In this document: positions 21,656 to 46,152 of the stretch, piece after piece | Layout: each line of letters begins with the position of its first letter | Numbering within the stretch: the first letter of the stretch is position 1 | Source: Candidatus Woesebacteria bacterium | GTDB lineage: Bacteria; Patescibacteriota; Microgenomatia; UBA8517 | Length of the DNA: 64,000 nucleotides | NCBI GenBank assembly: GCA_016432525.1 | Contig: CP066693.1 | Location: 30,017 to 94,016, forward strand | Direction: 5' to 3' | Notes under the pieces: model-generated | What the model saw: the letters and a program-made list of their open reading frames with translations, nothing else | What the model was told of the DNA's origin: nothing | The model's database searches: none | Translations under genes and position numbers: made by a program

Positions 21656-21687
<32 letters not shown>

Positions 21688-22526: not shown

Positions 22527-22585
<59 letters not shown>

Positions 22586-23156: not shown

Positions 23157-23198
<42 letters not shown>

Positions 23199-23844: not shown

Positions 23845-23918
23845 TGGACCTGAGCGGGATCGAACCGCTGACCTCATCATTGCAAATGATGCGCTCTATC
23901 CAGCTGAGCTACAGGCCC
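23845..23918 (-). tRNA. tRNA-Ala (anticodon TGC).
   Basis: Reverse complement GGGCCTGTAGCTCAGCTGGATAGAGCGCATCATTTGCAATGATGAGGTCAGCGGTTCGATCCCGCTCAGGTCCA. G3:U70. Anticodon loop TTTGCAA. It occupies the canonical spacer position 5' of the 23S. Confidence 0.9.
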
Positions 23919-24162
23919 TCGACCTGTCGCCTTAGGCGACCGTTTTGGCCAGCTGAACTATCGGCCCGTAAATAAAATGTGCAACAAAAAACCGACACTA
24001 GGTCGGTCATCCGATACAAGCCACCCCAAAAAGGGAGTTGCGCTTATTAAAAATTATTAAAAAAAATTCCTTTGCTCATCAATAATTCAATCGGATACGT
24101 TACCTAAAATTAGGTTAAGGCAAATTATATATTTATTAAAGCTAATAGTCAATTAGTATTTG

Positions 24163-24234
24163 TGGGCGCGCATGGGATCGAACCATGGACCTCTTTCTTA
24201 TCAGGAAAGCGCTCTACCACTGAGCCACGCGCCC
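24163..24234 (-). tRNA. tRNA-Ile (anticodon GAT).
   Basis: Reverse complement GGGCGCGTGGCTCAGTGGTAGAGCGCTTTCCTGATAAGAAAGAGGTCCATGGTTCGATCCCATGCGCGCCCA. Anticodon loop CTGATAA. Canonical Ile–Ala spacer tRNA pair. Confidence 0.9.
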
Positions 24235-24326
24235 AAGCTCAACTAGTTTACCTCAAATTGGCCTTAAACTCAACGAACATGCTATAATAGACCCATAATC
24301 CGCAGTTTGACAGAAAGGAAACGGGT

Positions 24327-24638
24327 ATGTTCAGAGATTTTGGTGATAGTAGAACCAGAACCAACCGTCCAATTTTCAGTTCTAACCAAATTAAAAATGT
24401 TTCTGAGCTCAAAAGAGGAATGAAAGTGCTTGTGTGTTCAAGTCTTAAAAACCATAAAAGCTACGTTGCCATCTTAACAATCAGCCCAGACCAAAACGAA
24501 AAAGGAGAATGGTTTATACATTACAAAAGAGAAGAAGACAAGATCGGGCTGGAAAGTCGCACTTTCCTTTGCGACCACAGCGTTGTTTCTTACGAAGACG
24601 GTAGATGGAACAACGCCAACTGGTTAGAAAAGATTTGA
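24327..24638 (+). CDS. Hypothetical protein (103 aa) encoded within the rRNA spacer region on the opposite strand.
   Basis: ORF with an upstream purine-rich stretch (acagaaaggaaacgggtATG). I recognise no motif. Confidence 0.4.
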   Translation: MFRDFGDSRTRTNRPIFSSNQIKNVSELKRGMKVLVCSSLKNHKSYVAILTISPDQNEKGEWFIHYKREEDKIGLESRTFLCDHSVVSYEDGRWNNANWLEKI

Positions 24639-24643
24639 TTTTT

Positions 24644-24681
24644 GCCCCTCTAAAGAGGAAAACTTTCTCTTCTAGAGGGGC
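24644..24681 (+). promoter_or_regulatory. Perfect 9-bp-stem hairpin immediately upstream of a TATAAT-like box and the 24702 start codon.
   Basis: GCCCCTCTA-aagaggaaaactttctcttc-TAGAGGGGC followed by tcgTATATAATacaattagtATG. It may act as a terminator for the upstream ORF and/or an operator or leader structure. Confidence 0.3.
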
Positions 24682-24701
24682 TCGTATATAATACAATTAG
24701 T

Positions 24702-26975
24702 ATGGCAAAATTGGTTACACTTCTTCTTAAACTCCCCAGAAACACTGAGGTAACACCTGAATCAGCCCAAACTTTTTTGGCAGCTTTAACTCAAATTAAT
24801 TCTCGTTCAACTCTCCATAGAATCAGGGGAATCCAAGAACGCCCGCTGGCTTTAGAAATTGCTTTAGTTAATCAACAAATCAGGTTTCAAATTACTTGCT
24901 CTGAGGATATGGCAGGTTTTGTCGAAACTCAAATCCAGTCTAACTATCCTCTTGTACTTATTGAAAAAGTTCCTGACTCTTTAGAAAATCAACCACTTTT
25001 TGTAACCGAACTAACTCTCAAAAAAGGAAATTTTTATCCCCTGGCAATTTTTTCAAGCTTTACAGATATAGATCCTCTTTCATCTATTCTCTCAGTTCTC
25101 TCAAAATCAAACCCTGATCAAATTTCAATCATCCAATTTGCATTAGAGTCAACCTCTGGCTCTTGGCAATCCATGGGGCAAAAATACTCAGACTACGGGA
25201 CAAAAAAAGAGGATGGAACTTATAGCCCAAGACCGGACTCAGCTATCATAAAAGAAAAAATTTCTTACCCAGGTTTTCTTGTCTCAATTCGCCTAGGATC
25301 AAACACGAAAGAAACCCTAAGAGAATTATCATCTGCCTTTGGTGTTTTCACCCGCGCTGATGCAAACTCTTTTTCGTCAAAAAGTAAAGGAATCTTTGGA
25401 TCTTCTCCTCTCAAAAACCTTCGCGACAGAACTGTTGCAGGTGGTGTAATTCTTAATCTTCCAGAACTCGCTACTGTTTGGCATCTTCCATCTGCCAAAA
25501 TAAAAACCTCGTCAATTGTTTGGGGAACATCAGTTTTATCAGAGCCACCAGATAATCTTCCAATTTCAGATGACAAAGACGAAAAAGCAAAAGAAGACAT
25601 CAACTTCTTTGGAAAAGTTCTTTTCAAAAACCGCGAAACAATCTACGGAATAAAAACAGTTGATCGCCGCCGCCACATCTGGTTAGTTGGAAAGACAGGA
25701 ACAGGTAAATCTACCTTCATAGCCAACATGGCAATTGACGATCTTAAAAAAGGTCGTGGTCTTGGAGTAATTGATCCTCATGGCGATCTTTGCGATATAA
25801 TCTTGGATTTCATTCCCTCAAGTCGCATCAACGATACAGTCATTTTTAATCCAGCAGATAAAGACTTTCCAATTGTCATCAATCCTCTTGAAGTTAAAAA
25901 CAAAGAAGAAGCAGAGCTTGTGGTTTCAGGAATTGTTGCAATTTTTAATAAAATTTTTGGATTTAGTTGGGGACCTCGTCTTGAATATATTTTAAGAAAC
26001 ACTCTTTTAACTCTTGCAGCAATTCCTGATAGCACTTTGGAAAATGTCTTAACAGCTTTAACTAACCCAACATATCGAAAAAGAATGATTGACCAAACAA
26101 CTGACCCAGTTCTCAAAAATTTCTGGGTTAATGAGTTTAGTAAAATGCCAGACAAACAAAGAGAAGAAGCAGTTGCCCCAATTCTAAACAAAGTTGGTCA
26201 ATTTGTTACATCCCCTCTTATTAGGAGAATAATAGGAAGCCCTCACAGTTCAATTCAAATCGATCAAATCATGAATGAAGGAAAAATAATTCTTGCCAAT
26301 CTTTCTCAAGGACGAGTAGGTGAAGATAACGCAGCCTTATTAGGAGCAATGTTAATCACCAAATTCCAGTTAGCTGCAATGCGAAGAGTTGATATTCCAG
26401 AAACCGAAAGACGCGATTTTTTCCTATATGTTGACGAATTCCAAAATTTTGCAACTCCATCATTTATGAAAATCTTATCAGAGGCAAGAAAATACCGACT
26501 CTCTTTAATGCTTGCAAATCAATATATGGCTCAAATCCCCGAAGAAGTTCAAAAATCAATTTTGGGAAATGCCGGAACCATTGTCTCATTCACAGTAGGA
26601 GCAGAAGATGGCGCCATTCTTCAAAAAGAATTTGGAGAAGTATTTACCCAAAACGACTTGGTCAATTTAGTAAATCACCAAGTAGCAATGAGACTTATGG
26701 TTGATGGACACTCAACTCGTCCATTTCTATCCCAAACTCTTCCACTTCCTCAATCAAGAAATCAAAATAAGCAAACGGTGATTAAAGTTTCTAGAGAGCG
26801 TTGGTCCAATAAAACTCCAATTCCGCCTCCACCAGTAATAATAGATTTGCCACCAACTCCTCAGCCAATGCACCAACAGCAGCAAGGCTATCGTCCTCAA
26901 TATCATTCTCAAAAAAGATTCGGCAGTTACAGAAGAAACTTCAAATCGAGTGTTGACCAGACAAAACATCAGTGA
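24702..26975 (+). CDS. TraD/TraG/VirD4-family (type IV coupling-protein-like; FtsK/HerA superfamily) P-loop ATPase. It has a soluble N-terminal domain of about 290 aa and a low-complexity Pro/Gln-rich C-terminal tail.
   Basis: HIWLVGKTGTGKSTFIANMAIDDLKKGRGLGVIDPHGDL (Walker A plus the VIDPxGD pattern, as in TrwB/TraD). Walker B / substrate-binding segment FFLYVDEFQNFATPSF…LSEARKYRLSLMLANQ. No N-terminal transmembrane helices. Confidence 0.65.
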   Translation: MAKLVTLLLKLPRNTEVTPESAQTFLAALTQINSRSTLHRIRGIQERPLALEIALVNQQIRFQITCSEDMAGFVETQIQSNYPLVLIEKVPDSLENQPLFVTELTLKKGNFYPLAIFSSFTDIDPLSSILSVLSKSNPDQISIIQFALESTSGSWQSMGQKYSDYGTKKEDGTYSPRPDSAIIKEKISYPGFLVSIRLGSNTKETLRELSSAFGVFTRADANSFSSKSKGIFGSSPLKNLRDRTVAGGVILNLPELATVWHLPSAKIKTSSIVWGTSVLSEPPDNLPISDDKDEKAKEDINFFGKVLFKNRETIYGIKTVDRRRHIWLVGKTGTGKSTFIANMAIDDLKKGRGLGVIDPHGDLCDIILDFIPSSRINDTVIFNPADKDFPIVINPLEVKNKEEAELVVSGIVAIFNKIFGFSWGPRLEYILRNTLLTLAAIPDSTLENVLTALTNPTYRKRMIDQTTDPVLKNFWVNEFSKMPDKQREEAVAPILNKVGQFVTSPLIRRIIGSPHSSIQIDQIMNEGKIILANLSQGRVGEDNAALLGAMLITKFQLAAMRRVDIPETERRDFFLYVDEFQNFATPSFMKILSEARKYRLSLMLANQYMAQIPEEVQKSILGNAGTIVSFTVGAEDGAILQKEFGEVFTQNDLVNLVNHQVAMRLMVDGHSTRPFLSQTLPLPQSRNQNKQTVIKVSRERWSNKTPIPPPPVIIDLPPTPQPMHQQQQGYRPQYHSQKRFGSYRRNFKSSVDQTKHQ

Positions 26976-27192
26976 TAAAAATGTATTAGAGATAAACGGC
27001 AAACCTCTCCTTTGCAGATGAGCGAAAATCGGTGCTTACTCGTCAATTGAAGGCCGTAAGTCTCCGAGGAAGAAGTTTGATGCATAAATTGCATAAAATG
27101 TATTCATCAAACACCTCAAACTTCTTCCTCTCCTTTTTTTAAAAAACTTTAAAATACTCCCATAGTCAACAAATAACTGGAGGTACCTTAAA

Positions 27193-27696
27193 ATGTCCAA
27201 GTTAGTCATGGCAATTGCCATATTCACGTCAATCTTTTTCGTATCGCTACCAATTCACGCGCAGGAAAATCTAAATGTTACAGTTTCTGCATCAGAGCTT
27301 CCACAAACAGGAACAAAAATTCTCGCAACAATGAATAATGGAATCAGCTTCGCGTTCGTCTCAAAAGACGAAAGTGGAGGGTGTGTCCAAATTCGTTGGT
27401 CAAACATAGCTATAAAATGCTTTGACAGAAGCACCTTGGAAAAAATTGTGATAACAACTATTCCATCTGGAGAAACACAGTATTTGAGTTTCTCCATAGT
27501 TGTCTTTAGAAAAGGAAACCTAGCTAAAGGAATCGATAGTATTTCTTCAGAAACCAAGCTGACAGAACTCGTCAAAGGCATCAAAAACCTCTTTAAAAAC
27601 GTAGCAGAATTGCTTGAAGCAAGAGATATTCATTGTATTGCAACTGCGGCTGCAGAAACTAAATCGGTCACCTTAGACATTTGGACAGAAATATAG
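27193..27696 (+). CDS. Secreted hypothetical protein (167 aa).
   Basis: A good ribosome-binding site (ctggaggtacc) 7-8 nt upstream. Signal peptide MSKLVMAIAIFTSIFFVSLPIHAQE. A terminator-like hairpin follows directly. Confidence 0.5.
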   Translation: MSKLVMAIAIFTSIFFVSLPIHAQENLNVTVSASELPQTGTKILATMNNGISFAFVSKDESGGCVQIRWSNIAIKCFDRSTLEKIVITTIPSGETQYLSFSIVVFRKGNLAKGIDSISSETKLTELVKGIKNLFKNVAELLEARDIHCIATAAAETKSVTLDIWTEI

Positions 27697-27705
27697 AATA
27701 AACCA

Positions 27706-27753
27706 AAAACCCGCTTTCAAGACGAGATTGTTCTCATCCCAAAAGCGGGTTTC
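27706..27753 (+). terminator. Inverted repeat after the 27193..27696 gene.
   Basis: AAACCCGCTTT-caagacgagattgttctcatccca-AAAGCGGGTTT followed by ctctttg. An 11-bp stem with a long loop and a weak T tract. Confidence 0.4.
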
Positions 27754-27999
27754 TCTTTGACCACCAAGACCATGACTGAAAGTGTGACTCGGTTATTTTC
27801 CTTAAATCAAAAAGACTTAAGGATAGCCTTAACCGTTGTCTAAAAGACTGGGTGTAAAAATTCACACTCCTTAGAAAGGAGGTGATCCATCCCCACCTTC
27901 CAGTAGGGATACCTTGTTACGACTTAATCCTCATCGCTGGTTTCAACTTCCTCCGATTCAATCGAAGTTCGGCTGCCCCCAACTTTGCTGACTTGACGG

Positions 28000-28877
28000 A
28001 TTGCACTTCATTGAAGTTATCGTGCGTTCCCAATCACATCAATGTGACGTCTGGTTTCTGTCCAGACTCCCGGCGAGCGGCTTTCCCGCACCGGGCGAGC
28101 CATAATGCCTATTCATTGAAAATTTCAGTCCTTTAATATATTCCAACTCTTTCGAATTAAGTTTCCTAATATCTTGTCTGCCTTTTACTATTCCAGCTAT
28201 TTTTCGAAAAGCTTCAAAACTTTTCGCTTTATAACCTAATAGCTTATATTTCTGAAAAAACGGGATAATAACATTATAGATATCGTCTCGTTTTGTTACT
28301 TCAAAAACAAAAGCAGGAAGTCGACCATCTCTAGCCGAACTTTTCTGATATACAGTTCCAATTCTAAAAAATTTCTGGACTTTAAAAAGTAAAGTTTTGT
28401 TTCCTTCTGCCTGAGCAATAAAAAATCTTAGATCAATTCTAAAATCTTTTCTCAAACTTACTAAAAAACACCCTTCTCCTTCTGTAAATCCAACAATATA
28501 TAAAGCTGAAAGCATTACGTATTTCCCTTCAATAATTACAATTTCAGTGTAACGAATATTACCCGAAAATGTCAATACCTACTATGGAAATGCTGACTTC
28601 CTAAAAAGCAATTACTTCAATCTTTTTAGGATCTCCCAGGGTCATTATGTTCTCTCTTCCTAGCATGAATGATGGGCTTTTTAAATCGACTTCCTTCCGA
28701 CCGCCCGGCGAAAGTCGTGCGAGCCTTTTTGATATCATCCCTGCTATTTGCCTCAAGCCCTCCAACCATATCAGTTACCCAATATGGTCTGCTTATTTTT
28801 TGGCTACTTGGTAGGATTTCAACCTACTAGAGGACATAACTGCCTGGCGCGTTGTTACCTAAATCTATATTACTATA
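28000..28877 (-). mobile_element. Intron in the 16S rRNA inserted within the conserved TGACGG^GCGGTGTGTAC block (near E. coli position 1395-1400); it carries a LAGLIDADG ORF.
   Basis: The rRNA match stops at …acttgacgg (27999) and resumes at ggcggtgtgtacaag (28878). The intervening sequence holds ORF 28039..28575 plus about 300 nt of structured non-rRNA sequence. Confidence 0.7.
28039..28575 (-). CDS. LAGLIDADG-family homing endonuclease encoded in the 16S intron.
   Basis: Motif VGFTEGEGCF near the probable true start (MLSALYIVGFTEGEG). About 160-178 aa. Confidence 0.85.
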   Translation of the reverse strand: MTFSGNIRYTEIVIIEGKYVMLSALYIVGFTEGEGCFLVSLRKDFRIDLRFFIAQAEGNKTLLFKVQKFFRIGTVYQKSSARDGRLPAFVFEVTKRDDIYNVIIPFFQKYKLLGYKAKSFEAFRKIAGIVKGRQDIRKLNSKELEYIKGLKFSMNRHYGSPGAGKPLAGSLDRNQTSH

Positions 28878-30366
28878 GGCGGTGTGTACAAGACCTGAGA
28901 ACGTATTCACCGGAGTATAGCTGACCTCCGATTACTACCAATTCCGCGTTCATGAGGGCGAGTTGCAGCCCTCAATCCCCACTGAGAAGCCGTTTTTGGG
29001 ATTAGCTCCAGATTACTCTTTGGCAACCCATTGTCGGCTCCATTGTAGCATGTGTGTCGCCCAAGGTATAAGGGCCATGCTGACTTGACATCATCCCCAC
29101 TTCCTTCCCGCACTAGGCGAGATAGTATCCCATGGATATATAACATGGGAAAGGGGTTGCGCTCGTTACCCCACTTAAGGGAACACCCCACGGCACGAGC
29201 TGACGACAGCCATGCAACACCTGTTGCCCCTTTTTTAATTACTTAAAAATCAGTCCATATTTCTACAGACCTAAAGAGGGCAATGTCAAACCTTGGTAAG
29301 GTCCTACGGTTCGTCTCGAATTGAACCACATGCTCCACTGGTTGTGCAGGTCCCCGTCAATTCCTTTGAGTTTTAACCTTGCGGTCGTACTCCCCAGGCG
29401 GCTCGCTTAACGCGTTAGCTTACGGAACTGAATCTTACGATCCAATCCCTAGCGAGCATAGTTTACGGCTAGGACTACAGGGGTCTCTAATCCCTTTTGC
29501 TCCCCTAGCTGTCGTTCCTCAGCGTCAAAAAATTCCTAGTTACCTGCCTTCGCCCTTGGAGTTCCTATTGGTATCAACGGATTTCACCCCTACACCAATA
29601 GTTCCAGTAACCCCGAAATATTTCAAACCAGTTAGTATTATCCCCCTTCCCGAGGTTGAGCCCCGGTCTTTAAAGAATAACTTAACAAGTCGCCTACGAA
29701 ACGCTTTACGCCCAGTAAATCCGGATAACGCTTGTGCCCCACGTATTACCGCAGCTGCTGGCACGTGGTTAGCGGGCACTTATTCTACTAATTATCTCTA
29801 ATTAATCAAAAGAGGTTTACGATCCGAAGACCTTCATCCCTCACGCGGTGTCGCGACGTCAGACTTTCGTCCATTGCGTACGATTCCTAGTTGCTGCCAC
29901 CCGTAGGTGTATGGGCCGTGTCTCAGTCCCATTCTGGGGGGTCATGCTCTCACACCCCCTACCCGTCGTAGGTTTGGTAGGCCATTACCCTACCAACTGC
30001 CTGATGGGAAATAGGCTCCTCCATCGGCGCGCAGTTATGCGCTTTTATCCGAAGATGTCATCCGGTATTAGCTCGTCTTTCGACGAGGTATTCCGAACCA
30101 TTGGGTAGATTCCTATTTTATACTCAGCCGTTCGCGACTAACTGTATTGCTACAGCTCGTCCCACTTGCATGCCTAAGGCACACCGCCAGCGTTCATCCT
30201 GGGCCAGGATCAAACCCTCAAAAAAGTGACGGAAACAAACTAAATAAAATTAAATAGCGTGTTCCATCGGAAACGCTTCCAGTCATGTCTTGATTGTCAA
30301 AGTTCTGTGTTATGAAGTGTTGTTACCCAAAAGGGAAGTTAACGCTTAGATTTTTTTGAATAAAAA

Positions 30367-35258: not shown

Positions 35259-36467
35259 TTACAGCTCGATAGCAAATCGGGGTGAGAAAGAGGTGTCTGT
35301 TGCTGATACTGATTGAATCTTGTCATAGATAAACATCTTGATACCTACATGACCCGAGTTACCACCGCTTGTATCCCATCCCCAGAAGTATTCCATCCCT
35401 CGTCCATCTTTTTTTCTGATCCTGTATTCAAATGCGTAAGGCTCAATAAGTCGAGCTACCCCATCATAAACCATTCTAATCAGATTCTGCGTTCTGCCCG
35501 CAGCAATGATCACATTTCTTTCTGCCGACGGGAAGTAACTGAAGACTGATGATGCACCAAAACCTTTTGTCAATCGAGCATATCCACCACCATAATTCAC
35601 TGGAGTGGTAGCAAACGAAGGAGCAGGAATGAAAGCGAACAGTCCTGTGACCAGATCTTTGAATCCAGTAACAGCACGATCGAAATCAAAAAGGCTGAAT
35701 ACAGGGGCGATTATCTCCTGCCAGAAAGGGCGATACTCCTCAACTGGAACATTGAGTAGCAGATCTTTGGCAGTATTAGGATTGGATTCATAGATAGTCT
35801 TTTTCAAAAAGGTGCTAATCACCTCAGGACGATTGACCTGATACTCATTGCTGATGAGAATCGAATACACCAAATCAAATAAATCCGTGACCTTCCTCCT
35901 TTGAAGTGCTGCATTCATTTTCGAAGCGAGTATTTCTTCAAGCTTGTGACACCGAATCACTGCCGTGCACTTATCCTCATCTGAGTATGGATGAATCAAG
36001 GAGCGTGATTGTACGGGAAGAAAAATCTTATCGAATGTTGTCACATCTAACTGGATTTTGAGTACGATTTCTTCCTCGCCATAAAAACTCTTGAAGTAAA
36101 TCCTCGCCTCATAAACCTGTGTCTGTTCATTGTCGAATCCAGGCTTTTTGTCGATTCGCGTTTTGTCGGTCTCGAATGATACACCAGATCGATCTTGAGC
36201 ATAGTTACACACTTCCTGTAGCTGCCTACTCAAATCCGATGGATCAACTGCATCAAGGACAGAGAAATCCAAATCTTTCGAAAAACGAGTATTGTGTAAG
36301 TAGGTCTTTCTGAGCGCGTTACCACCTTTGAGGATCAGTTTCTCACCTAATCCAGACTCTCCATAGATTCCCGATAATAACCATCCAAAAACATAGTCCC
36401 TCTGTAAATTGGAGGTGTTGATCTGGAACTCCTTAGCTTTCTGCTCGATCTCTGAGTTCTGTATCAT
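35259..36467 (-). CDS. AbiEii/AbiGii-family nucleotidyltransferase-like protein (type IV TA toxin-like). It has a long C-terminal extension and no obvious AbiEi partner.
   Basis: LKGGNALRKTYLHNTRFSKDLDFSV matches the AbiEii/DUF1814 N-terminal nucleotidyltransferase signature (GG[TN]AL…R[FY]SxDLDF). First gene of the higher-GC block. Confidence 0.6.
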   Translation of the reverse strand: MIQNSEIEQKAKEFQINTSNLQRDYVFGWLLSGIYGESGLGEKLILKGGNALRKTYLHNTRFSKDLDFSVLDAVDPSDLSRQLQEVCNYAQDRSGVSFETDKTRIDKKPGFDNEQTQVYEARIYFKSFYGEEEIVLKIQLDVTTFDKIFLPVQSRSLIHPYSDEDKCTAVIRCHKLEEILASKMNAALQRRKVTDLFDLVYSILISNEYQVNRPEVISTFLKKTIYESNPNTAKDLLLNVPVEEYRPFWQEIIAPVFSLFDFDRAVTGFKDLVTGLFAFIPAPSFATTPVNYGGGYARLTKGFGASSVFSYFPSAERNVIIAAGRTQNLIRMVYDGVARLIEPYAFEYRIRKKDGRGMEYFWGWDTSGGNSGHVGIKMFIYDKIQSVSATDTSFSPRFAIEL

Positions 36468-38383: not shown

Positions 38384-38611
38384 TCAGAAAGGGAGAAGTT
38401 CAGACGAGCTCACCTTCAGGGCTTTTGCAATCTTGTAGAGGGTTCTGATGGTTGGATTTCGTTCACCTCTTTCAATCATCCCGATGTATGTCCTGTGCAT
38501 CGAAAGTTTTGCAGCCAGATCCTCTTGAGATACTCCAGCCTCCTTTCGAATCTTTTGCATCTTGTGCCCGAACTTCTCGAGCATATCTCGATGAGTGATA
38601 GGTTTACCCAT
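38384..38611 (-). CDS. XRE-family helix-turn-helix transcriptional regulator (phage cI/Cro-like repressor).
   Basis: KIRKEAGVSQEDLAAKLSMHRTYIGMIERGERNPTIRTLYKIAKAL is a canonical XRE HTH. It is divergently oriented to 38655..38987. Confidence 0.8.
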   Translation of the reverse strand: MGKPITHRDMLEKFGHKMQKIRKEAGVSQEDLAAKLSMHRTYIGMIERGERNPTIRTLYKIAKALKVSSSELLPF

Positions 38612-38654
38612 ATCCTAATCGTAGAGACTGTGAGTATCATTCTCGACATACTCC

Positions 38655-38987
38655 TTGTATGCAAATGTGCTACAATGTAGATGTTTTCCTATGAGCAATA
38701 TTCGTATTTTTGTAGTAGTAGTTGTGATCATCCTGGTGGGATATTTCACCTGGGATACAGTTGTTAAATTAGATGCAGATGTGACCCTCAACAGTGGTGG
38801 TCAAAGCAGCTATGCTCAGCAGTATTTCGGCACTGGGTACACCAAAGAGCAAATGATCAAGCTGAAGAAAGATACTTCAGATTCAATCTTGAGGCGCGGG
38901 ATCTTTCTGGATGCAGCCACACTTCTAACTGGAGCATTCGCACTCCTGGCAACTGGTAAGTTACAATCAAAGAGGAAGGAATCATGA
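38655..38987 (+). CDS. Small membrane protein (110 aa), divergent from the XRE regulator.
   Basis: N-terminal transmembrane helix (IFVVVVVIILVGYF) and a second near the C-terminus. Confidence 0.4.
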   Translation: MYANVLQCRCFPMSNIRIFVVVVVIILVGYFTWDTVVKLDADVTLNSGGQSSYAQQYFGTGYTKEQMIKLKKDTSDSILRRGIFLDAATLLTGAFALLATGKLQSKRKES

Positions 38988-39153
38988 GAAAGAAGTTGAA
39001 ATCAAAGCAGAAAGTTACAAGGCAATCAAATGCACAACGAGGGCTCAAACTCAAGGAAGGGCAATACTACGCTGTATTTGTGCCGAAGAAACACTGATCT
39101 GCTACAATACAATTAACTCCTCCACTTCGATTGATCCTCCTGTTGAAAAGATT

Positions 39154-39504
39154 ATGGTTATGATGCTCAAACCTCGACACCAGAAGTTCGTTCGGGCGTT
39201 CGTTGAGAATGGTGGCAACGCTACCAGAGCTGCGCAAGTAGCTGGTTATGGTAGTGGTGATGGGTATTCGCGTCTTGCGGGACATCGACTGATAACAAAC
39301 GATAACATCAAAAACTTGGTTGTGGCTGAAATGGAAGCTACTGGACTTGGTTTGAAATCACTTGTCAGAAGGCTCAGACAGGTCATTTTTCATCCTCAAG
39401 AGCTTGATGGTATCTCAGTTACAGCTATGAACGCTATCGGAAAATGGCAAGGATGGAATAAACCCTTGACAAAAGTGGACTTGATAGTTCATAGTTTTGA
39501 ATAA
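39154..39504 (+). CDS. Phage terminase small-subunit-like protein.
   Basis: KPRHQKFVRAFVENGGNATRAAQVAGYGSGDGYSRLAGHRLITNDNI matches the Terminase_2/TerS (P27-family) N-terminal HTH region. Confidence 0.6.
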   Translation: MVMMLKPRHQKFVRAFVENGGNATRAAQVAGYGSGDGYSRLAGHRLITNDNIKNLVVAEMEATGLGLKSLVRRLRQVIFHPQELDGISVTAMNAIGKWQGWNKPLTKVDLIVHSFE

Positions 39505-39696
39505 TAAGTAAATAACGCTTCGTTCATTTTGAATAAGGAAAAAGCGTTGATCTCGGTAATGACCTAAGGACAAGCAGATAGCTGTCAAAGGTACAAGGCA
39601 GACCGCCCCGACAATCAGAACCGAGTGAGCCGAAACCCTCAAATTGAGCAGTACCAGCCGAAAGGCTGACTGTAAGATCTGAGGATTTTTTATTTT

Positions 39697-39722
39697 GCAG
39701 CCTTTCATGGCTGCTTTTTTTA
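39697..39722 (+). terminator. Intrinsic terminator after the TerS-like gene.
   Basis: GCAGCC-tttcatg-GCTGC-TTTTTTTat. Confidence 0.5.
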
Positions 39723-39734
39723 TGGCTCACTCGT

Positions 39735-39944
39735 ATGGTCACACCAGAAGCGTTGCAATCATTCAAAGAAATATGCAAGAGAAAGGGCATCAAAATTGAT
39801 GACCAGACCGCTCTTGACTATGCTGAAAGACTCCTGGGACTCATAAGCGCTATCTATCGACCAATTTCGAAGGATAGTCCGTTTTTGAAAGGAGGTGTGT
39901 ATGCTCCAGCAAAATCCAAAACCAGAAGAAAAACTCAGGACTGA
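39735..39944 (+). CDS. Hypothetical small protein (69 aa).
   Basis: ORF only. RBS aaggagg is present near its 3' end for the next gene. Confidence 0.3.
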   Translation: MVTPEALQSFKEICKRKGIKIDDQTALDYAERLLGLISAIYRPISKDSPFLKGGVYAPAKSKTRRKTQD

Positions 39945-40087
39945 TTTGAGCTTGGCTGAGCTGAAGTTGATTGACTTCATCCGAAAGCTCAAATGGGGTT
40001 CGGCTGAGATCACTGTCCAAAACTCACAGCCTGTGATCGTTAAAGTAGCTGTGCAGACAGTCAAATTGACTTGAGGAGCAAAAGCCT

Positions 40088-41083
40088 ATGCAAAACGGAG
40101 AAAACCGAAGCATGAACGGATTCACACAAGTAGAGAACTTCCTTATCGATGAGGTTATGCCTCGTCTAAGGCGACCTACAGCCTGGAGACTGATCACTGC
40201 GATCCTAAGGGACTCTGTGGGTTGGCAGCGCGAGTGGACTGAATGGCATACACGAAAATGGTGTGCAGAAAAAGCAGGGTGTTCAGTGGAAGCAATCACT
40301 GATGTTTGGAATGAGACAGTGCCAAAGATTCTCCTCATGCAAGATGATCGATTCAAAATGCTCACAACGACTGCTGAACGACAGCATGCGGGCAACAGAA
40401 GGAGGCTTACTCGAATGAAAATCAATCCACAGATTCACAAAACATACTTGAGTATTTTTTCCTCAAGTGACTATCACCCAAAGAAAAAATCCACAAGTAC
40501 TCGAGGGAAAAGTGCCGACACTCAAAGAAAGGATGATAGAAAGGAGAATGATCCTGAAGGATCAGCTGAACTCCGTTCTGACATATCAGATAAGCAGAAA
40601 AAACTACTACAACTGGAGGCGTTACTCTCCATAGATGATATTCAGTTTCTGAAATCGCTACTCGATAACTACCCCGAGCTTGATGCTGTCAAAGTAGCCA
40701 CAGACGCTTCAGAGTGGATCAACGATGAAGGACGAGCAAATATCGGTAGTCGAAAACACCTGATAAAAAAGTTTTTCAGCACAGCCCATGAGAAGCTCTT
40801 GAAGCAAAAGCACATGTATGGGCTCAATCAGGCGATGATTTTTCTGGACGGATTCTATCGAATCTATCCTGAACGAAAACCCAAAAAGTTGAAAACTCTG
40901 CTACGACAAGCAAAATTCTACATTGAGGTAGTTGGAAAAGGATACACTAATGAGCAAATGCTTGAGACAGCAAAATGGATGACTTCTATGCTCCATTGGG
41001 CGAATCGATTTGGGTTTGAGGATGTCATCACCGTCTTACCTGCTTATTGTGTGGAAAAAAGAAAAAGGAGGTTGCAAACATGA
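40088..41083 (+). CDS. Putative replication-initiation / replisome-organiser protein (phage or plasmid type).
   Basis: N-terminal wHTH-like segment ENFLIDEVMPRLRRPTAWRLITAILRDSVGWQREW resembles phage replication protein / DnaD-like N-domains. Basic, low-complexity middle section. Tentative. Confidence 0.4.
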   Translation: MQNGENRSMNGFTQVENFLIDEVMPRLRRPTAWRLITAILRDSVGWQREWTEWHTRKWCAEKAGCSVEAITDVWNETVPKILLMQDDRFKMLTTTAERQHAGNRRRLTRMKINPQIHKTYLSIFSSSDYHPKKKSTSTRGKSADTQRKDDRKENDPEGSAELRSDISDKQKKLLQLEALLSIDDIQFLKSLLDNYPELDAVKVATDASEWINDEGRANIGSRKHLIKKFFSTAHEKLLKQKHMYGLNQAMIFLDGFYRIYPERKPKKLKTLLRQAKFYIEVVGKGYTNEQMLETAKWMTSMLHWANRFGFEDVITVLPAYCVEKRKRRLQT

Positions 41084-42900
41084 ATGCTCGTTTGAAAAGA
41101 ATGACCAAAAGAGGTAGTATGTATGATACAAGGAGTATGAAAAATTCAACTTCGATAGGAGAAATCCGATGGGCAGAATACAATCGTCGTTCATCTGACG
41201 AGGGGAAGAAAAAGCAGCTACTTTCAAATAAGTCACAGACTGATGAGCTCGCGAAAAGATATCCCGAAAACGACTTCAAGCGCAAGCATCATATTCAAGA
41301 GTCAGATAGTGCGTTCCATCCGAATAACAGACCAAGGTTCGAACAGTTAATGCAACTTATTGAAGCTGGTGAGATCAACGGCATCATCTGTTGGCATCCT
41401 GACAGGCTCTCAAGGAACTCAATTGATGCAGGACGCATCGTTCATTTGCTCAAGATTGGACAACTCAAGGAGATCAAGTTTGGCTCATATCACTTCGAAA
41501 ATACACCTGAAGGAAGGATGTTTCTGCAGTTAGCTCTGAGTCAGTCAGAATACTACTCGGACAAGTTGTCTGTAGATGTCAAACGAGGCAACACAACACA
41601 CCTGGAGAACGGACAGTGGCTCGGTGCTGCTCCACCAGGCTACCTCAACCTTATTGATCCACTTACAAAGCAAAAATATGTTGATCTCGATCCTGAGAGA
41701 TTCCCACTTCTGCAAAAAGCTGGCAAGCTTTTTCTCACTGGTCGCCATCGAGCAATGGAAGTCTTGGATATTCTCAATAATGAGTGGGGATACCGCAGTC
41801 GAAAAACCGAGAAACAGGGTGATAAACCAATGAGCAAAAGTGGTTTCTACAAGTTCCTTTCAAATCCTTTCTACTTTGGTCAAATGATAAGATCCGAGGG
41901 TGAGTTCACGGGTAGTCACAAGTCAATGTTCACCGAGTCAGAGTTCGATCGAATCCAGATTCTACTTGGTAGAAAGGGACGACTTAGGAACGATGTTCAT
42001 AAGTTTCCTTTCAAAGAGTTACTCAAGTGTGGAGAATGTGGTGGGTCAGTTACCTGTGAGGAAAAATGGCAGATAATTTGCTCGAACTGCAAAACCAAGT
42101 TCCACAAGGGCAAAAAGACCGATCAGTGCCCACAGTGCCATACTTTGATTGAGGCAATGGTCGATCCGACCATTCTCCACTATGTGTATTATCACTGCAC
42201 GAAGCGGGTGAACAGAAACTGTACTCAGGGTTGTATTTCAAAAGGTGATCTTGAAAAAACTGCAGATGTGGAACTTCAAAAGTTTGAGATCGATGAGACC
42301 TTCAGAGACTGGGCTATCGAGCATTTGAATAAGCTCAATAAGATTGAGGTCACTGATCGGGAAAAAATTAGAGGATCACTCAAAGTTGCATACGATGATT
42401 GTGTCAAAAAGATTGATAACTTACTCTCGTTGAAGATCTCAGTACAGAACACTGATGGTAGTGCGATTTCAGAAGCAGAGTACCTTAGCCAAAGACGGTC
42501 ACTACTGGAAGAAAAAGAGAGCCTTCTGGAACGACTCAATGATGTAGATCAGAGACAAAACACCTGGCTTGAACTTTCAGAGCGCACTTTCAATTTTGCT
42601 CTCTATGCTCGTCACTGGTTCGCCTACGGAGACTTACTACAAAAAACTCAGATACTTGCTGGACTTGGTTCGAACCTTCTGATACAGGACAAAAAGTTAT
42701 TGATAGATCGGCACAAACAGCTTTTTCTAATTGAGAAAGGGAAAAAGGAAGCAGAGAATCTTGGCTACTCGTTCGAACCTACAAAAAAGCCCGATTTGAC
42801 AACACAATCGGCTCCTTCTGAAGTCATTCGTTCTGCTTGGCTGCGGGACAGGGATTCGAACCCCGGTACCAAGATCCAAAGTCTTGTGTCCTACCACTAG
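41047..42900 (+). CDS. Large serine recombinase (resolvase/invertase catalytic domain, recombinase domain and zinc ribbon). The start is probably the second Met near 41080.
   Basis: Catalytic YNRRSSDEG (Y-x-R-x-S-S). Recombinase-domain segment LSRNSIDAGRIVHLL. Zinc ribbon CGECGGSVTCEE…CSNCKTKF…CPQCH. The last roughly 20 codons overlap tRNA-Gln on the opposite strand. Confidence 0.85.
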   Translation: MCGKKKKEVANMNARLKRMTKRGSMYDTRSMKNSTSIGEIRWAEYNRRSSDEGKKKQLLSNKSQTDELAKRYPENDFKRKHHIQESDSAFHPNNRPRFEQLMQLIEAGEINGIICWHPDRLSRNSIDAGRIVHLLKIGQLKEIKFGSYHFENTPEGRMFLQLALSQSEYYSDKLSVDVKRGNTTHLENGQWLGAAPPGYLNLIDPLTKQKYVDLDPERFPLLQKAGKLFLTGRHRAMEVLDILNNEWGYRSRKTEKQGDKPMSKSGFYKFLSNPFYFGQMIRSEGEFTGSHKSMFTESEFDRIQILLGRKGRLRNDVHKFPFKELLKCGECGGSVTCEEKWQIICSNCKTKFHKGKKTDQCPQCHTLIEAMVDPTILHYVYYHCTKRVNRNCTQGCISKGDLEKTADVELQKFEIDETFRDWAIEHLNKLNKIEVTDREKIRGSLKVAYDDCVKKIDNLLSLKISVQNTDGSAISEAEYLSQRRSLLEEKESLLERLNDVDQRQNTWLELSERTFNFALYARHWFAYGDLLQKTQILAGLGSNLLIQDKKLLIDRHKQLFLIEKGKKEAENLGYSFEPTKKPDLTTQSAPSEVIRSAWLRDRDSNPGTKIQSLVSYH

Positions 42901-42911
42901 ACGATCCCGCA
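42841..42911 (-). tRNA. tRNA-Gln (anticodon TTG).
   Basis: Reverse complement TGCGGGATCGTCTAGTGGTAGGACACAAGACTTTGGATCTTGGTACCGGGGTTCGAATCCCTGTCCCGCAG. U1:A72 and G73 (glutamine identity). Anticodon loop CTTTGGA. Closely related to the tRNA-Glu at 46080..46152. Confidence 0.8.
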
Positions 42912-43057: not shown

Positions 43058-43333
43058 TTACCCGTTGCGCCTAGCCTGGGTCTTGAACTCAACGATTTTC
43101 GTTGACTCCTCCACCTTCGGCTTGCTCAAAACATTGCCAGCATGGCCATCAAACAGGACAGCTGTGACCAAACTCATGTCGATCACAATGTCGTGCTGAC
43201 TCCTAGCTCTTTCAGCAACTGCGGCTGCATTGGCCCCTACAGGAACTTCTACCGTGACACGGTTTGCTCCGTATACAACGGTAACGGTAACAGCAACCTT
43301 GAGGGGCGCGGGCTCAGTAATCCGACTCGTCAT
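43058..43333 (-). CDS. Ubiquitin-like beta-grasp protein (91 aa) ending …RRNG.
   Basis: Its secondary-structure pattern aligns with ubiquitin: KVAVTVTVVY / RVTVEVPVG / helix AAAVAERARSQ / LVTAVLFDGHAGNVL (compare LIFAGKQLEDG) / KIVEFKTQARRNG (compare LHLVLRLRGG). Last gene of the E1–JAB operon. Confidence 0.6.
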   Translation of the reverse strand: MTSRITEPAPLKVAVTVTVVYGANRVTVEVPVGANAAAVAERARSQHDIVIDMSLVTAVLFDGHAGNVLSKPKVEESTKIVEFKTQARRNG

Positions 43334-43412
43334 CTTACACCTCCATAAAAAAACAAAATGTGCTTCAAAGTTTGACCTAAGAATCCGATAGTATCACGCC
43401 ATTAAATTGATG

Positions 43413-44225
43413 TCAAACCAAAGCATCTGAAATGGATCTCAAAGAAGGCCCCCACAAACCATTCTGGTTTGCGTACACAGCACCTTCAAAAGAGTATGCA
43501 GTAATTTTGTCAGCCAAGTATGCGATAAACACTTGAAACATTAGTGTTGCAGTAGAAATATTAGAAGCAAGTGTTTGTTCTGCACCTTCATCTGTCGCAG
43601 CACTACAGCTCGCTTCATTCCTATTGATGGTTCCATTCAAAAGAACTCCTCTCTCTGCCTTAGCCAGTTCTGAAATCTCAGGATGCAAAGTTAAAAGACT
43701 AGGGGTTATATCTTTTCCTCCACGTCTTATGTGAATACTTACATCCCAATCCAGTTTGTTTGTTCCTCCGTTGACTACACACACATTTCTCAATGATTGT
43801 GCATATTCAGACACAACAGACCTAGGATAGTAAGCGTCAACACAAAGAAAGATCAAGGAACTTTCTTTAACAACATCCGAAACAGGAACTGTTTCTACTC
43901 CATGAATCCTATTATGATCAGTACGAGATACAACCATTTTAGGTATAGCTTCTAATCCCTGAAGCCTCCCCTCAAAACGCATTGTATATGTACCAACCAG
44001 GCTATTCGCTTTATTTCCAGGACGGGCAAAAAACTGTCTTGCACGATTTTTGTCTTCAAAACGATCGTGATCAACAACCAAAAAACGCCGTTTTATAAGC
44101 CCTCTTTCATGAAACATATACTGTGTTAGAAAAAGGGCAAGCCAACTCCCATTACCTCCAGCACCAATTAAGACAATCGAATCGGGAATCATTGATTTTC
44201 TCCTCTCCGAACATACCATAACCAA
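43413..44225 (-). CDS. Minimal E1-like activating enzyme (ThiF/MoeB family). The start is probably Met-12 near 44192.
   Basis: Rossmann nucleotide loop IVLIGAGGNGSWLALFL. Conserved Asp/Arg (LVVDHDRFEDKNRARQ). Candidate catalytic Cys in EASCSAATDEG. Confidence 0.75.
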   Translation of the reverse strand: MVMVCSERRKSMIPDSIVLIGAGGNGSWLALFLTQYMFHERGLIKRRFLVVDHDRFEDKNRARQFFARPGNKANSLVGTYTMRFEGRLQGLEAIPKMVVSRTDHNRIHGVETVPVSDVVKESSLIFLCVDAYYPRSVVSEYAQSLRNVCVVNGGTNKLDWDVSIHIRRGGKDITPSLLTLHPEISELAKAERGVLLNGTINRNEASCSAATDEGAEQTLASNISTATLMFQVFIAYLADKITAYSFEGAVYANQNGLWGPSLRSISDALV

Positions 44226-44881
44226 TCTTCTGGAAAGTAAGAAATCTGATCAGGCATATCAATCAAAAAATCCGGGCTAAGAATAAATCTAAGCCCACAT
44301 ATTGTGACTGACACGCTCATATTAACTGGACCATCAAATACCCTGCCGAGTGTAATGTATATTCCATCAACGCCAGTTTCATTAAAATCATCCTCAAGAC
44401 TATGGCCCGCAAGCATTATTCCATGAGAGTGAATAATCCCAACTGCCAAAAATCCTTCTGGTATCGGCTCAATCTCCCTATGCTGGACCGAAGCGAAACT
44501 TACCTTCTGATGTAGTGGCCTAAAATCCCACTTGTCCTCCTCCGGAGAGTAAAGAATTTGAAGCATTGCCTCACTTTGAAATTTTTCATACACCTTTCTA
44601 AAAAACCCTTTAGCCATCAATATAAGACCATACGGGATCTTCGAGAAAGAAGTGTAGATTTTCTGTTCAAAATTAAGAAGGTCCTCCGGTTGACAAGATT
44701 CAATTATTTTTCTGTTTGTTGGAGCTACAATTTCAATCCAAGTTTCATCTCCTTGTTTTATGCAACCCCAAAGAAAATTGCCGTTCTTGGCAACAACATA
44801 AAGTAAACGTTTGTTGGTTGGAAATTCAAAATTTCGGTCATAAAACACAATCCTCTCACCCATGTAAGTCATCTTAACCAA
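44189..44881 (-). CDS. JAB/MPN (JAMM) metallopeptidase (deubiquitinase-like).
   Basis: Full JAMM motif HSHGIMLAGHSLEDD (HxHx7Sx2D) with upstream Glu. About 230 aa. Its ends overlap both neighbours, indicating an operon. Confidence 0.75.
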   Translation of the reverse strand: MVKMTYMGERIVFYDRNFEFPTNKRLLYVVAKNGNFLWGCIKQGDETWIEIVAPTNRKIIESCQPEDLLNFEQKIYTSFSKIPYGLILMAKGFFRKVYEKFQSEAMLQILYSPEEDKWDFRPLHQKVSFASVQHREIEPIPEGFLAVGIIHSHGIMLAGHSLEDDFNETGVDGIYITLGRVFDGPVNMSVSVTICGLRFILSPDFLIDMPDQISYFPEDWLWYVRRGENQ

Positions 44882-45201
44882 TCCTCCTCAGGAAAATAAT
44901 CCTGACCTCGATGTCTCATCTGATTTAAATATGGCTGAATTAAAGAATCCGCCTCTTTTCTAGTACGATATCCTAAAACAAACTCTTTATCACTAGATGA
45001 TACTTTCTCTATCATCGCATAAGCGATTGCAAGATATATCTCATCCTCTGAAAAACCAGGGAATCTCATAAGAATCGCTTTGACCATTCGTTTAGTTATC
45101 CATTCAAATAACCAATATTCCCCGATTACATCTATGATATTTCGAAGTTTATTCTTAACTGTTAAGTCAGTGTATAACCACTCTTTCAGTTTAATCGACA
45201 T
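44869..45201 (-). CDS. Hypothetical protein (110 aa) within the Ubl/E1/JAB operon.
   Basis: ORF overlapping both neighbours. No Cys. I recognise no motif. Confidence 0.4.
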   Translation of the reverse strand: MSIKLKEWLYTDLTVKNKLRNIIDVIGEYWLFEWITKRMVKAILMRFPGFSEDEIYLAIAYAMIEKVSSSDKEFVLGYRTRKEADSLIQPYLNQMRHRGQDYFPEEDWLR

Positions 45202-45203
45202 TG

Positions 45204-45956
45204 TTAACCTCCTATGTTACGGTCTAATGCTTCTGTAACTGTCAAGTCCGCAGGAAACCAACCAATAGAAGTTATAAACCTTCTCCACGACTTCTTTCTA
45301 CTTTTCCTCACCCAATCCCCAAAATTTTTGGGGTGGTTTCTAGCAGAATGCATATTTCCTTCAAGAAGGTCATCTAAGTCAGAGTTATAGATGCTATTCC
45401 AAAATATATCCACAGCCTGGCCAAGTTTACCTATTAGAGTTCTTTGTCTTGATGCTTCACTAAAATTCATGCAAAGTCTCTTTCCATGGTTGTTGGGTAA
45501 ATTTGCATAAAAGAGTGGATCATTATAAGAACCAATCGCTTGGTTTCTATAATACACAGCTGCGGAAACGTCACCACAAGAGTCTTCTTGAACCACAAAA
45601 ACTACATATGGAAACGCAAGAGGCTTCGCTACCCAAACTAAGGAACTTACTCCAAACAAGCTAGATCCTAGTTTAATATTCCTTATTGAAGGCTCAAATT
45701 CAATCATCACCCTTTTCCAGTTGCTACTTTTTCTAATTGCTACAATTCGTCCACCACTAAAAGTTGGAAGAAAAAAGTCGTTGATTGCATTAAGCCGTAT
45801 AGCGGTAAGCACATCTTCAAACCTGTATTGCGATCCGTCAACATTTGCCTCAATACGAAATCCCCCTTCTGTTTCTTTAAGAACTACACCTCCTAATTCA
45901 TAGAGAATTCCATCGTTGATTAGATACGGTTTATTCTTACCCATCTTTAACTCCAT
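45204..45956 (-). CDS. Operon-leading 250-aa protein ending in Gly-Gly. It has a possible degenerate E2 (UBC-like) active-site context; the role is speculative.
   Basis: C-terminus …TEALDRNIGG*. The segment LPNNHGKRLCMNF loosely resembles the E2 HPN…G…C motif. First gene of the five-gene operon. Confidence 0.45.
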   Translation of the reverse strand: MELKMGKNKPYLINDGILYELGGVVLKETEGGFRIEANVDGSQYRFEDVLTAIRLNAINDFFLPTFSGGRIVAIRKSSNWKRVMIEFEPSIRNIKLGSSLFGVSSLVWVAKPLAFPYVVFVVQEDSCGDVSAAVYYRNQAIGSYNDPLFYANLPNNHGKRLCMNFSEASRQRTLIGKLGQAVDIFWNSIYNSDLDDLLEGNMHSARNHPKNFGDWVRKSRKKSWRRFITSIGWFPADLTVTEALDRNIGG

Positions 45957-45998
45957 TTCATTATTTTAACGAGCGATATAGAAATTATATAAAAAAAG

Positions 45999-46070
45999 TG
46001 AGCCCGACAGGGATCGAACCTGCGACATTCTCCTTAAAAGGGAGCTGCTCTACCGCTGAGCTACGGGCTC
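45999..46070 (-). tRNA. tRNA-Lys (anticodon TTT).
   Basis: Reverse complement GAGCCCGTAGCTCAGCGGTAGAGCAGCTCCCTTTTAAGGAGAATGTCGCAGGTTCGATCCCTGTCGGGCTCA. Anticodon loop CTTTTAA. Confidence 0.85.
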
Positions 46071-46079
46071 AAATTTCAG

Positions 46080-46152
46080 TGACCCCACAGGGATTCGAAC
46101 CCTGGTACTCAGGCTGAAAACCTGATGTCCTAGGCCACTAGACGATGGGGCC
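46080..46152 (-). tRNA. tRNA-Glu (anticodon TTC).
   Basis: Reverse complement GGCCCCATCGTCTAGTGGCCTAGGACATCAGGTTTTCAGCCTGAGTACCAGGGTTCGAATCCCTGTGGGGTCA. Anticodon loop TTTTCAG. Confidence 0.85.

Follow-up and report, generated by a model that had tools for sequence, protein, structure and literature searches.

Organization of the locus

The chromosome of a Candidatus Woesebacteria bacterium (Patescibacteriota) carries, in the 64,000-nt stretch of contig CP066693.1 analyzed here (hereafter the window), five short genes that would together encode a ubiquitin-like conjugation cassette. An earlier note, made from the DNA sequence alone, had described five co-directional open reading frames (ORFs) at this place, and all five were found on the minus strand. 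Their order is E2-like protein, 110-aa protein, JAB peptidase, E1 and ubiquitin-like protein (Ubl). The first gene (45204-45956) is a 250-aa ORF, whose deposited start, M5 at 45944, gives a protein of 246 aa. It is followed by the gene of a 110-aa orphan accessory protein (44869-45201), which ends in an ATGA overlap with the start of the JAMM/JAB metallopeptidase gene. The latter (44189-44872) encodes 227 aa as deposited and 230 aa if the full ORF (44881-44189) is considered. The next gene (43413-44192) encodes a minimal ThiF-type E1 of 259 aa according to alignment, the full ORF (44225-43413) corresponding to 270 aa. The last one (43058-43333) encodes the 91-aa Ubl, which ends in R-R-N-Gly91.

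With the likely true starts (ATG at 44872 for the JAB and at 44192 for the E1), ATGA start/stop overlaps are found at two junctions, the E1 start overlapping the JAB stop. The sole intergenic gap, of 79 nt, precedes the Ubl gene and contains a GGAGG ribosome-binding site and, on the same strand, a promoter-like site (TTGACA-17-TGnTACTAT, 43388-43416, 10/12 consensus match). Since the total of promoter-like sites across the region does not exceed the shuffled expectation, this site is merely suggestive.

As the earlier note had proposed, the cassette lies between tRNA genes. ARAGORN and Rfam located tRNA-Glu(UUC) and tRNA-Lys(UUU) (45998-46152; the two genes at 45998-46070 and 46079-46152) 41 nt upstream of the E2-like ORF, and tRNA-Gln(UUG) (42838-42911) 146 nt downstream of the Ubl gene, at the boundary with an integrated element. 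All three are on the same strand as the operon.

Relatives and conservation of the cassette

Other Patescibacteria also carry the cassette, with identities of 32-48%. The closest relative is a partial copy (L001) that is 75-88% identical to the window and is also followed by tRNA-Gln. Between these two sequences, the ratio of nonsynonymous to synonymous substitution rates (dN/dS) is 0.23 for both the JAB and the E1, 0.28 for the 110-aa protein and 0.36 for the Ubl. Judged from these ratios, the five genes are under purifying selection. Recurrence of the cassette at such identities, together with dN/dS values of 0.23-0.36, indicates that the five genes are not chance ORFs.

Various forms of the cassette were found. 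Ca. Woesebacteria RIFOXYB1_FULL_38_16 and related strains (L002, L004-L006) carry genes of 252, 110, 249, 268 and 86 aa, with 38-48% identity, whereas a fragment (L010) holds only the E2 and 110-aa genes. A metagenome-assembled genome (MAG) of Patescibacteria (L011-L013) harbors a four-gene form, the proteins of which are 32-43% identical. In another genome from the Rifle-aquifer metagenome series (L016/L017), all five genes are present, the middle one encoding only 64 aa, and the housekeeping flanks resemble those of the Candidate Phyla Radiation (CPR); this form is present in 38 blocks of the collection. Further forms (L020/L021) have a middle gene of 126-131 aa.

The distribution is nevertheless sparse, i.e. 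a handful of lineages among billions of proteins. The collection of species-representative genomes yielded just one cassette-carrying relative, the first scan of it having given none, and no relative was found in the scan of viral contigs. In word-indexed searches, the 250-aa protein retrieved only itself and the JAB retrieved two relatives. Profile searches of PDB sequences with four of the five proteins (all except the 110-aa one) gave nothing meaningful, and no useful match came from PHROGs.

The E1 enzyme and the JAB peptidase

The E1 consists of a single Rossmann/ThiF adenylation domain of 259 aa and scores above the threshold of Pfam ThiF (E=1.6e-8). The motifs GAGGNGS, VVDHDxF(E), NxxRQFF, PGNKA and FLCVDxxYPR, as well as Cys196 (numbering of the 259-aa protein), are invariant across four lineages; hence, the nucleotide, Arg, Lys and Asp motifs are all kept. 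Cys196, which had already been picked out in the segment EASCSAAT as the possible active residue of a minimal ThiF-type E1, is a candidate thioester site. In NCBIfam, the enzyme comes closest to MoeB (E=4e-5) and ThiF, and its score against PRTRC_ThiF is 18.4 bits for a cutoff of 144.75. Profile-profile comparison by hhalign with the PRTRC_ThiF-like E1 of a Gloeothece plasmid gave 96.8% (E=2.7e-10), Cys being aligned to Cys. Distant E1 genes that have the GAGGNGSW and VDHDxFE N-terminal motifs of the family were also seen in an Anaerolineales MAG (L014, 8001-8234) and in Spirulina sp. (L015, 639-851).

The JAB possesses the complete HxHx7Sx2D motif that had been claimed for it, in the form E...HSHx7Sx2D, upstream Glu included, and this motif is invariant in the relatives. 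The match with Pfam Prok-JAB is below threshold (E=0.0026). The match with NCBIfam PRTRC_A (E=7.8e-6; 25.6 bits for a cutoff of 101.8) covers nearly the full length, residues 28-194 being aligned with profile positions 29-184, N-terminal part included. Furthermore, hhalign comparison of the JAB profile with the PRTRC_A-like JAB of Gloeothece gave 95.6% (E=1.2e-8) over 169 columns that include the N-terminal extension. According to its motif and alignments, the 227-aa protein is a JAMM peptidase with a JAB-N-like N-terminal extension, and it is predicted to act as a de-conjugating isopeptidase.

The E2-like protein and its probable accessory partner

The 250-aa protein has no direct family match in Pfam, NCBIfam, PADLOC or PHROGs. 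A four-sequence profile of its family was used against 1.84 billion representatives and gave 289 matches at E<=1e-3, among which P0030 and P0033 exceed the gathering threshold of Pfam Prok-E2_D. In an alignment of 47 sequences of this family, the only invariant columns are P116, N155, C162 and W233, defining an LPN-x7-C motif in which Leu replaces the classical His of E2 enzymes and Cys162 is invariant. His208, located downstream of Cys162, is conserved within a narrow clade. The 47-sequence family aligns with a bona fide Prok-E2_D/PRTRC_B protein (hhalign 96.7%, E=3.7e-10), Cys on Cys. With a two-sequence profile compared with single Prok-E2_D proteins, no clear match was obtained, significance being reached only with the 47-sequence profile. 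Since direct scoring against Pfam gave no match, membership in Prok-E2_D is deduced from profile and transitive evidence only.

The protein begins with a domain of beta and helix elements (about residues 1-60), after which comes a UBC-like domain. Its AlphaFold2 model is confident, with a predicted local distance difference test score (pLDDT) of 86.8; as Foldseek found no significant match to this model in the PDB, the fold evidence is moderate. The earlier note had suspected a "possible degenerate E2-like" segment (LPNNHGKRLC). The suspicion of an E2 holds up, as indicated by the alignment with Prok-E2_D, whereas the term degenerate does not, since this segment is the best-conserved motif of the family, N155 and C162 being invariant in the 47 sequences. 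The Gly-Gly end that was also pointed out is not conserved, the relatives finishing in QGEER, GRDWLR or EDWLD. The idea that this end could be the C-terminus of a second modifier was rejected for the same reason. Many relatives of the E2-like domain (P0033, P0037, P0041, P0073, etc.) are proteins of 400-870 aa in which the domain is internal or near the N-terminus, and they carry no JAMM or E1 motif.

The 110-aa protein has no match in Pfam, NCBIfam, PADLOC or PHROGs. Its sole invariant feature is a C-terminal EDWL(R/D/H), EDWL being invariant in 6 sequences. In L011, there is no separate 110-aa gene, and the E2-like protein (P0028) ends in ...EGREYYESEDWLD, i.e. with a fused EDWL tail. The E2-like protein that terminates in GRDWLR is the one from L010. 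The fusion in L011 implies that the small protein is functionally linked to the E2, for which it probably serves as adaptor or docking protein. A small gene (64-131 aa) is also found between the E2 and JAB genes in L002, L016/L017 and L020/L021. The profile of the 110-aa protein shows no sequence similarity with small proteins encoded at the same position elsewhere or with PRTRC accessory proteins.

The predicted ubiquitin-like protein

The 91-aa protein has no sequence match in the family libraries. Its AlphaFold2 model, built from five sequences, has a pLDDT of 77 and a beta-beta-alpha-beta-beta topology, in agreement with the beta-grasp fold attributed to it in the earlier note; the best structural matches of the model include SAMP1 and MoaD. 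The stop codon directly follows Gly91, and the C-terminal R-x-N-G* is found in all 5 members of the family. The RRNG end with a single Gly, on which attention had been drawn, is thus a conserved feature. As far as can be read from the gene, the Ubl is synthesized in its mature form. Since it already ends in Gly, the JAB would be needed for reversal of conjugation and not for maturation.

The Ubl profile has no sequence similarity with PRTRC_C/Prok_Ub, and no or only marginal similarity with the 72-aa or 260-aa proteins encoded downstream in relatives. The gene is rich in Ala, Val and Gly codons and has a G+C content of 0.529. In the wider relatives L020 (4336-5121) and L021 (8683-9462), the E1 is followed by a gene whose product, about 260 aa long, gives a faint SAP match and has an N-terminal part (about 105 residues) that ends in ...EFRAEDGEKG. 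This protein may be a Ubl precursor fusion requiring cleavage by the JAB; profile comparison gave no support for this reading.

Probable assignment to the 6d/PRTRC class

The bacterial operon class called "6d" is the core of what TIGRFAMs/NCBIfam name the PRTRC system: PRTRC_C is the Ubl, PRTRC_B (Pfam Prok-E2_D) the E2, PRTRC_A the JAB and PRTRC ThiF the E1. Five types of E1/E2/JAB operons were defined by Iyer, Burroughs and Aravind in 2006 (PMC1779556). In the 6d type, the JAB has an alpha+beta JAB-N domain at its N-terminus, with a strictly conserved Arg and Trp, the small standalone Ubl has a conserved C-terminal Gly, the E2 lacks the classical His and has a conserved Cys and a conserved His downstream, the gene of the ThiF-type E1 adjoins that of the JAB, and the fifth protein is fast-evolving and alpha-helical, with conserved charged residues (PMC1779556). 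The operons described by these authors had been cited in the earlier note, which thus pointed in the right direction, the inventory of the Woesebacteria cassette being in all likelihood that of row 6d (PMC1779556). The parts present are a single-Gly Ubl, an E2-like protein with the Cys and without the classical His, a JAB with an N-terminal extension, a ThiF-type E1 and a small accessory protein that may correspond to the fast-evolving fifth one.

A tblastn search against plasmids gave only weak matches, to a "PRTRC system ThiF family protein" and a "PRTRC system protein A". The corresponding cassettes of Cytobacillus and Gloeothece plasmids have the order Prok-E2_D(PRTRC_B), JAB(PRTRC_A), ThiF. 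They carry a Prok_Ub/PRTRC_C-like gene upstream, and that of Gloeothece is also followed, about 2.7 kb downstream, by a ParB gene. The E2-JAB-E1 order is therefore common to these plasmids and to the Woesebacteria cassette, and the hhalign comparisons of the three enzymes all fall between 95.6 and 96.8%.

Several differences with the PRTRC system were also observed. The Woesebacteria cassette is chromosomal, and its Ubl gene is located after the E1 rather than upstream. No sequence similarity could be detected between the Ubl or the 110-aa protein and PRTRC_C or the accessory proteins, and the Patescibacteria clade has its own C-terminal EDWL motif. None of the window proteins reaches the cutoffs of the PRTRC models TIGR03734-TIGR03742, PRTRC_B and PRTRC_C giving no match at all. 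No ParB homolog and no PRTRC D, E or F protein were found in the window neighborhood or in the flanks of the relatives. For these reasons (missed cutoffs, absence of ParB and of D/E/F, Ubl gene after the E1, dissimilar Ubl and small protein), we file the cassette as a divergent variant of 6d, outside the PRTRC system as NCBIfam defines it. Judged from the profile comparisons, it belongs, as a strongly diverged chromosomal form, to the 6d/PRTRC class and not to the Bil (bacterial ISG15-like) systems.

Other classes of bacterial E1/E2/JAB operons are sisters of this one, namely Bub ("6e"/DUF6527), the Cap2/Cap3 proteins ("6b") of type II CBASS (cyclic oligonucleotide-based anti-phage signaling systems) and 6A-MBL. 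These classes are characterized by fusion of the E1 with either the E2 or the JAB and by other partners (CD-NTase, MBL, multi-ubiquitin), whereas the parts of the Woesebacteria cassette are separate and minimal. In particular, neither an E2-E1 fusion nor a CD-NTase was found in the cassette (ORF list, Pfam, PADLOC).

Proposed mechanism and role

The earlier proposal of a conjugation-type operon associating a Ubl, an E1, an E2-like protein and a JAB is supported by these data. We estimate at about 0.6 the probability that the cassette is a complete and functional Ubl-conjugation system of the 6d/PRTRC class, kept on the chromosome of Woesebacteria and of related Patescibacteria. Catalytic motifs and their conservation, operon structure and the fusion of the E2 with the tail of the 110-aa protein are observed and the folds are predicted; the chemistry is proposed from what is established for E1, E2 and JAMM enzymes. 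The minimal E1, having bound ATP-Mg, would adenylate the free C-terminal Gly91 of the Ubl, and Cys196 would then capture the acyl-adenylate as a thioester. The Ubl would be handed to Cys162 in the LPN-x7-C loop of the E2-like protein and, from there, moved to an amine of the target protein, probably that of a lysine. The JAMM peptidase would strip the tag from the targets. Since one lineage has the EDWL tail at the end of its E2, the 110-aa protein is proposed to work with the E2, probably in docking or as an adaptor. A separate promoter may drive the Ubl gene and could then provide the modifier in excess.

What such a cassette would be used for can be approached through the sister classes. 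Protein conjugation is known for type II CBASS, Bil and Bub, the first two of which serve in phage defense (PMC11601603). Furthermore, the 6A-MBL class bears an anti-phage name in NCBIfam. By analogy with classes that are characterized or bear an anti-phage name (CBASS, Bil and 6A-MBL for immunity, Bub for conjugation), our best guess, made with low confidence, is a role in conflict or defense, the tagged proteins being those of phages or of the host. Regulation of host proteins related to stress would be the next guess.

Several points weigh against the assignment and the function proposed here. Three of the five proteins are under every curated family threshold (Pfam, NCBIfam). The Ubl model was obtained from only five sequences (pLDDT 77), and this protein has no sequence similarity with PRTRC_C/Prok_Ub. 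No target, E3 or effector can be identified. The defense context is weak, being limited to an AbiEii toxin and an integrated element nearby, and the relatives are located among housekeeping genes. Finally, literature searches on PRTRC, on Prok-E2 and on Patescibacteria combined with ubiquitin-like proteins found no functional study, nor any biochemical evidence for a 6d/PRTRC system.

Genomic neighborhood and alternative explanations

The earlier note had considered the cassette as horizontally acquired, on the basis of a G+C content "clearly higher" than the background and of an adjacent prophage-like island. The G+C content of the cassette is 0.399 for a window median of 0.378, which places it at the 69th percentile among segments of 2.9 kb; the Ubl gene alone stands out. 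An offset of +2 to +3 points over the flanks is also found in three other lineages. Strong G+C deviation was therefore rejected as a sign of recent transfer. Moreover, the neighborhood is shared with a distant relative. In the MAG with 32-43% identity (L011-L013), the cassette adjoins tRNA-Gln, tRNA-Lys and tRNA-Glu (6621-6694, 7505-7577 and 7825-7899 in L011) and is within 8 kb of Trx, TrxB and DsbA-like genes; tRNA-Glu is directly upstream of the cassette in L011/L012 as in the window, where TrxB and a DsbA-like gene lie just past the tRNAs. The tRNA trio is not found at L002 or L017. In other lineages (the RIFOXYB1_FULL_38_16 group, L016/L017), the cassette is located among housekeeping genes. 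Given this barely raised G+C content, shared neighborhood and housekeeping context, and an element that lies beyond tRNA-Gln, recent acquisition is not supported, and long residence is better supported than recent transfer.

Such a stable context could suggest that the cassette modifies host proteins for housekeeping or stress purposes, as archaeal SAMPylation or pupylation do, and thereby controls how stable or active these proteins are. Among the alternatives, this one survives best, although we consider it unlikely. It would account for the chromosomal, syntenic and housekeeping setting in several lineages, for purifying selection and for the maintenance of the cassette in very small genomes. 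However, it is difficult to reconcile with a distribution limited to a handful of lineages among billions of proteins and to one relative among species-representative genomes, and neither a proteasome nor any other reader of the tag is evident.

The integrated element beyond tRNA-Gln calls for a second explanation. A small remnant of this element adjoins tRNA-Gln and has a G+C content of 0.42-0.44; together with the AbiEii toxin gene mentioned below, it is covered by 38600-42900 and 35259-36467 of the window. The remnant includes a small Terminase_2-like gene (39154-39504), a gene encoding a 331-aa unknown protein (40088-41083) and a large serine recombinase gene (41047-42900), the ORF of which runs into tRNA-Gln. 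A gene encoding an AbiEii toxin is located further along. The cassette could be viewed as cargo of a mobile element, i.e. a PRTRC-type module recently acquired at a tRNA hot-spot and serving the element for its maintenance, its establishment or as anti-defense. Indeed, 6d/PRTRC relatives are typically carried by plasmids and conjugative elements (PMC1779556), the cassette is inserted between tRNA genes beside an element with a recombinase and a terminase-like gene, and its G+C content is slightly above that of its flanks. Nevertheless, this origin is improbable. No ParB, relaxase, conjugation or replication gene accompanies the cassette, the element with the recombinase lies beyond tRNA-Gln, and no direct repeats that could be attachment (att) sites were detected around either the cassette or its neighboring element. 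The tRNA trio, TrxB and DsbA-like neighborhood is common to a relative with 32-43% identity, other lineages have the cassette in a housekeeping-gene setting, viral contigs yielded no relative, and all scores remain far below the PRTRC cutoffs of NCBIfam.

The flanking tRNAs themselves raise a third question. Transfer RNAs for Gln, Lys and Glu carry a wobble 2-thiouridine, and eukaryotes and archaea thiolate them in a Ubl-dependent way. The archaeal SAMP/UbaA/HvJAMM1, Thermus TtuB/TtuC and Urm1/Uba4 systems resemble the Woesebacteria cassette by a minimal MoeB/ThiF-like E1, a small beta-grasp modifier and reversal by a JAMM peptidase, and they thiolate tRNAs including the Gln, Lys and Glu set. 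The Ubl might hence be a sulfur carrier of the MoaD/ThiS/Urm1/SAMP2/TtuB type, acting as a thiocarboxylate, for instance in U34 2-thiolation of the flanking tRNAs, conjugation being secondary. The minimal E1 with MoeB and ThiF as best NCBIfam matches, tRNA-Gln-UUG, -Lys-UUU and -Glu-UUC forming exactly the s2U34 set, and the presence of this trio beside the cassette of a relative with 32-43% identity are in favor of this hypothesis, which we nonetheless regard as even less probable than carriage by a mobile element. None of the known systems includes an E2, and Gly-Gly is the end of their modifiers, whereas the cassette has a conserved E2-like protein, a Ubl with an Asn-Gly end and no linked sulfur-transfer partner. 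In agreement with the earlier note, scans of the cassette and its neighbors revealed no biosynthetic or sulfurtransferase partner, whether rhodanese, cysteine desulfurase, PP-loop thiouridylase, MoaE, ThiG, NcsA/TtuA or other. Furthermore, the conserved parts include a JAMM peptidase and an E2-like protein whose Cys is invariant, neither of which is required for sulfur transfer, tRNA genes are missing near other loci that carry the cassette, and plasmid 6d/PRTRC relatives have no such links.

Both activities might coexist. The cassette would then be an ancient, vertically inherited ubiquitination system of Patescibacteria tied to s2U34 tRNAs, its Ubl being both a sulfur carrier for wobble-uridine thiolation and a protein modifier served by the E2 and the JAMM peptidase, as a counterpart of Urm1/SAMP2. 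We hold this to be very improbable; if true, the cassette would represent a surviving intermediate that links sulfur-carrier systems with ubiquitination through an E2.

Least probable of all is that the cassette belongs to the Bil anti-phage systems, as the label "Bil-like" of the earlier note implied; its Ubl would then be conjugated to phage structural proteins. Like BilABCD (types I and II), it has separate genes for a Ubl, an E2, a JAB-type deubiquitinase (DUB) and an E1 in one operon, and the same chemistry is expected (E1 to E2 to lysine, with reversal by a JAMM peptidase). However, PADLOC-DB 2.0.0, which presumably contains Bil models, gave only a weak match to the Cap2 E1-E2 (E=0.0076) over residues 9-64 of the E1, i.e. 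the Rossmann motif, NCBIfam gave no match to an anti-phage family even though this library has anti-phage E1 models, and each of the three enzymes has its best profile match with a protein of the PRTRC type. Moreover, the E1 of Bil combines an inactive adenylation domain, an active one and a mobile CYS domain, the order of the Bil genes is Ubl-E2-DUB-E1, and the Bil Ubl requires pre-processing by the DUB (PMC10557695); here, the E1 is a single domain of 259 aa, the order is E2-x-JAB-E1-Ubl and the Ubl already ends in Gly.

Elsewhere in the window, an rRNA operon is located on the minus strand (19740-30225), with 16S at 28829-30225, tRNA-Ile at 24163-24234, 23S at 20963-23694 and 5S at 19740-19856. 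The stretch between 16S and tRNA-Ile is unusually long (about 4.6 kb) and contains ORFs, one of which is LAGLIDADG-like (28039-28575). A G+C-rich block (12990-15027; 0.47-0.51 against about 0.35) contains the genes of a secreted protein (384 aa) and of a membrane-anchored one (167 aa) and has no match with any RNA family.

Significance

The 6d/PRTRC-class cassette described here is a new, minimal and chromosomal CPR variant of a class that has been described computationally and for which no experimental work was found. With five short separate proteins, an E1 of 259 aa and a Ubl that would be made already mature, it is close to the smallest complete version of such a system. Since it is minimal and resides in a stable chromosomal context instead of on a plasmid, it appears suited to biochemical reconstitution. 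It also includes a new conserved element, the C-terminal EDWL, that travels with the E2 or is fused to it. If the proposed function is correct, extremely reduced bacterial genomes would retain a full system to tag proteins and to remove the tag.

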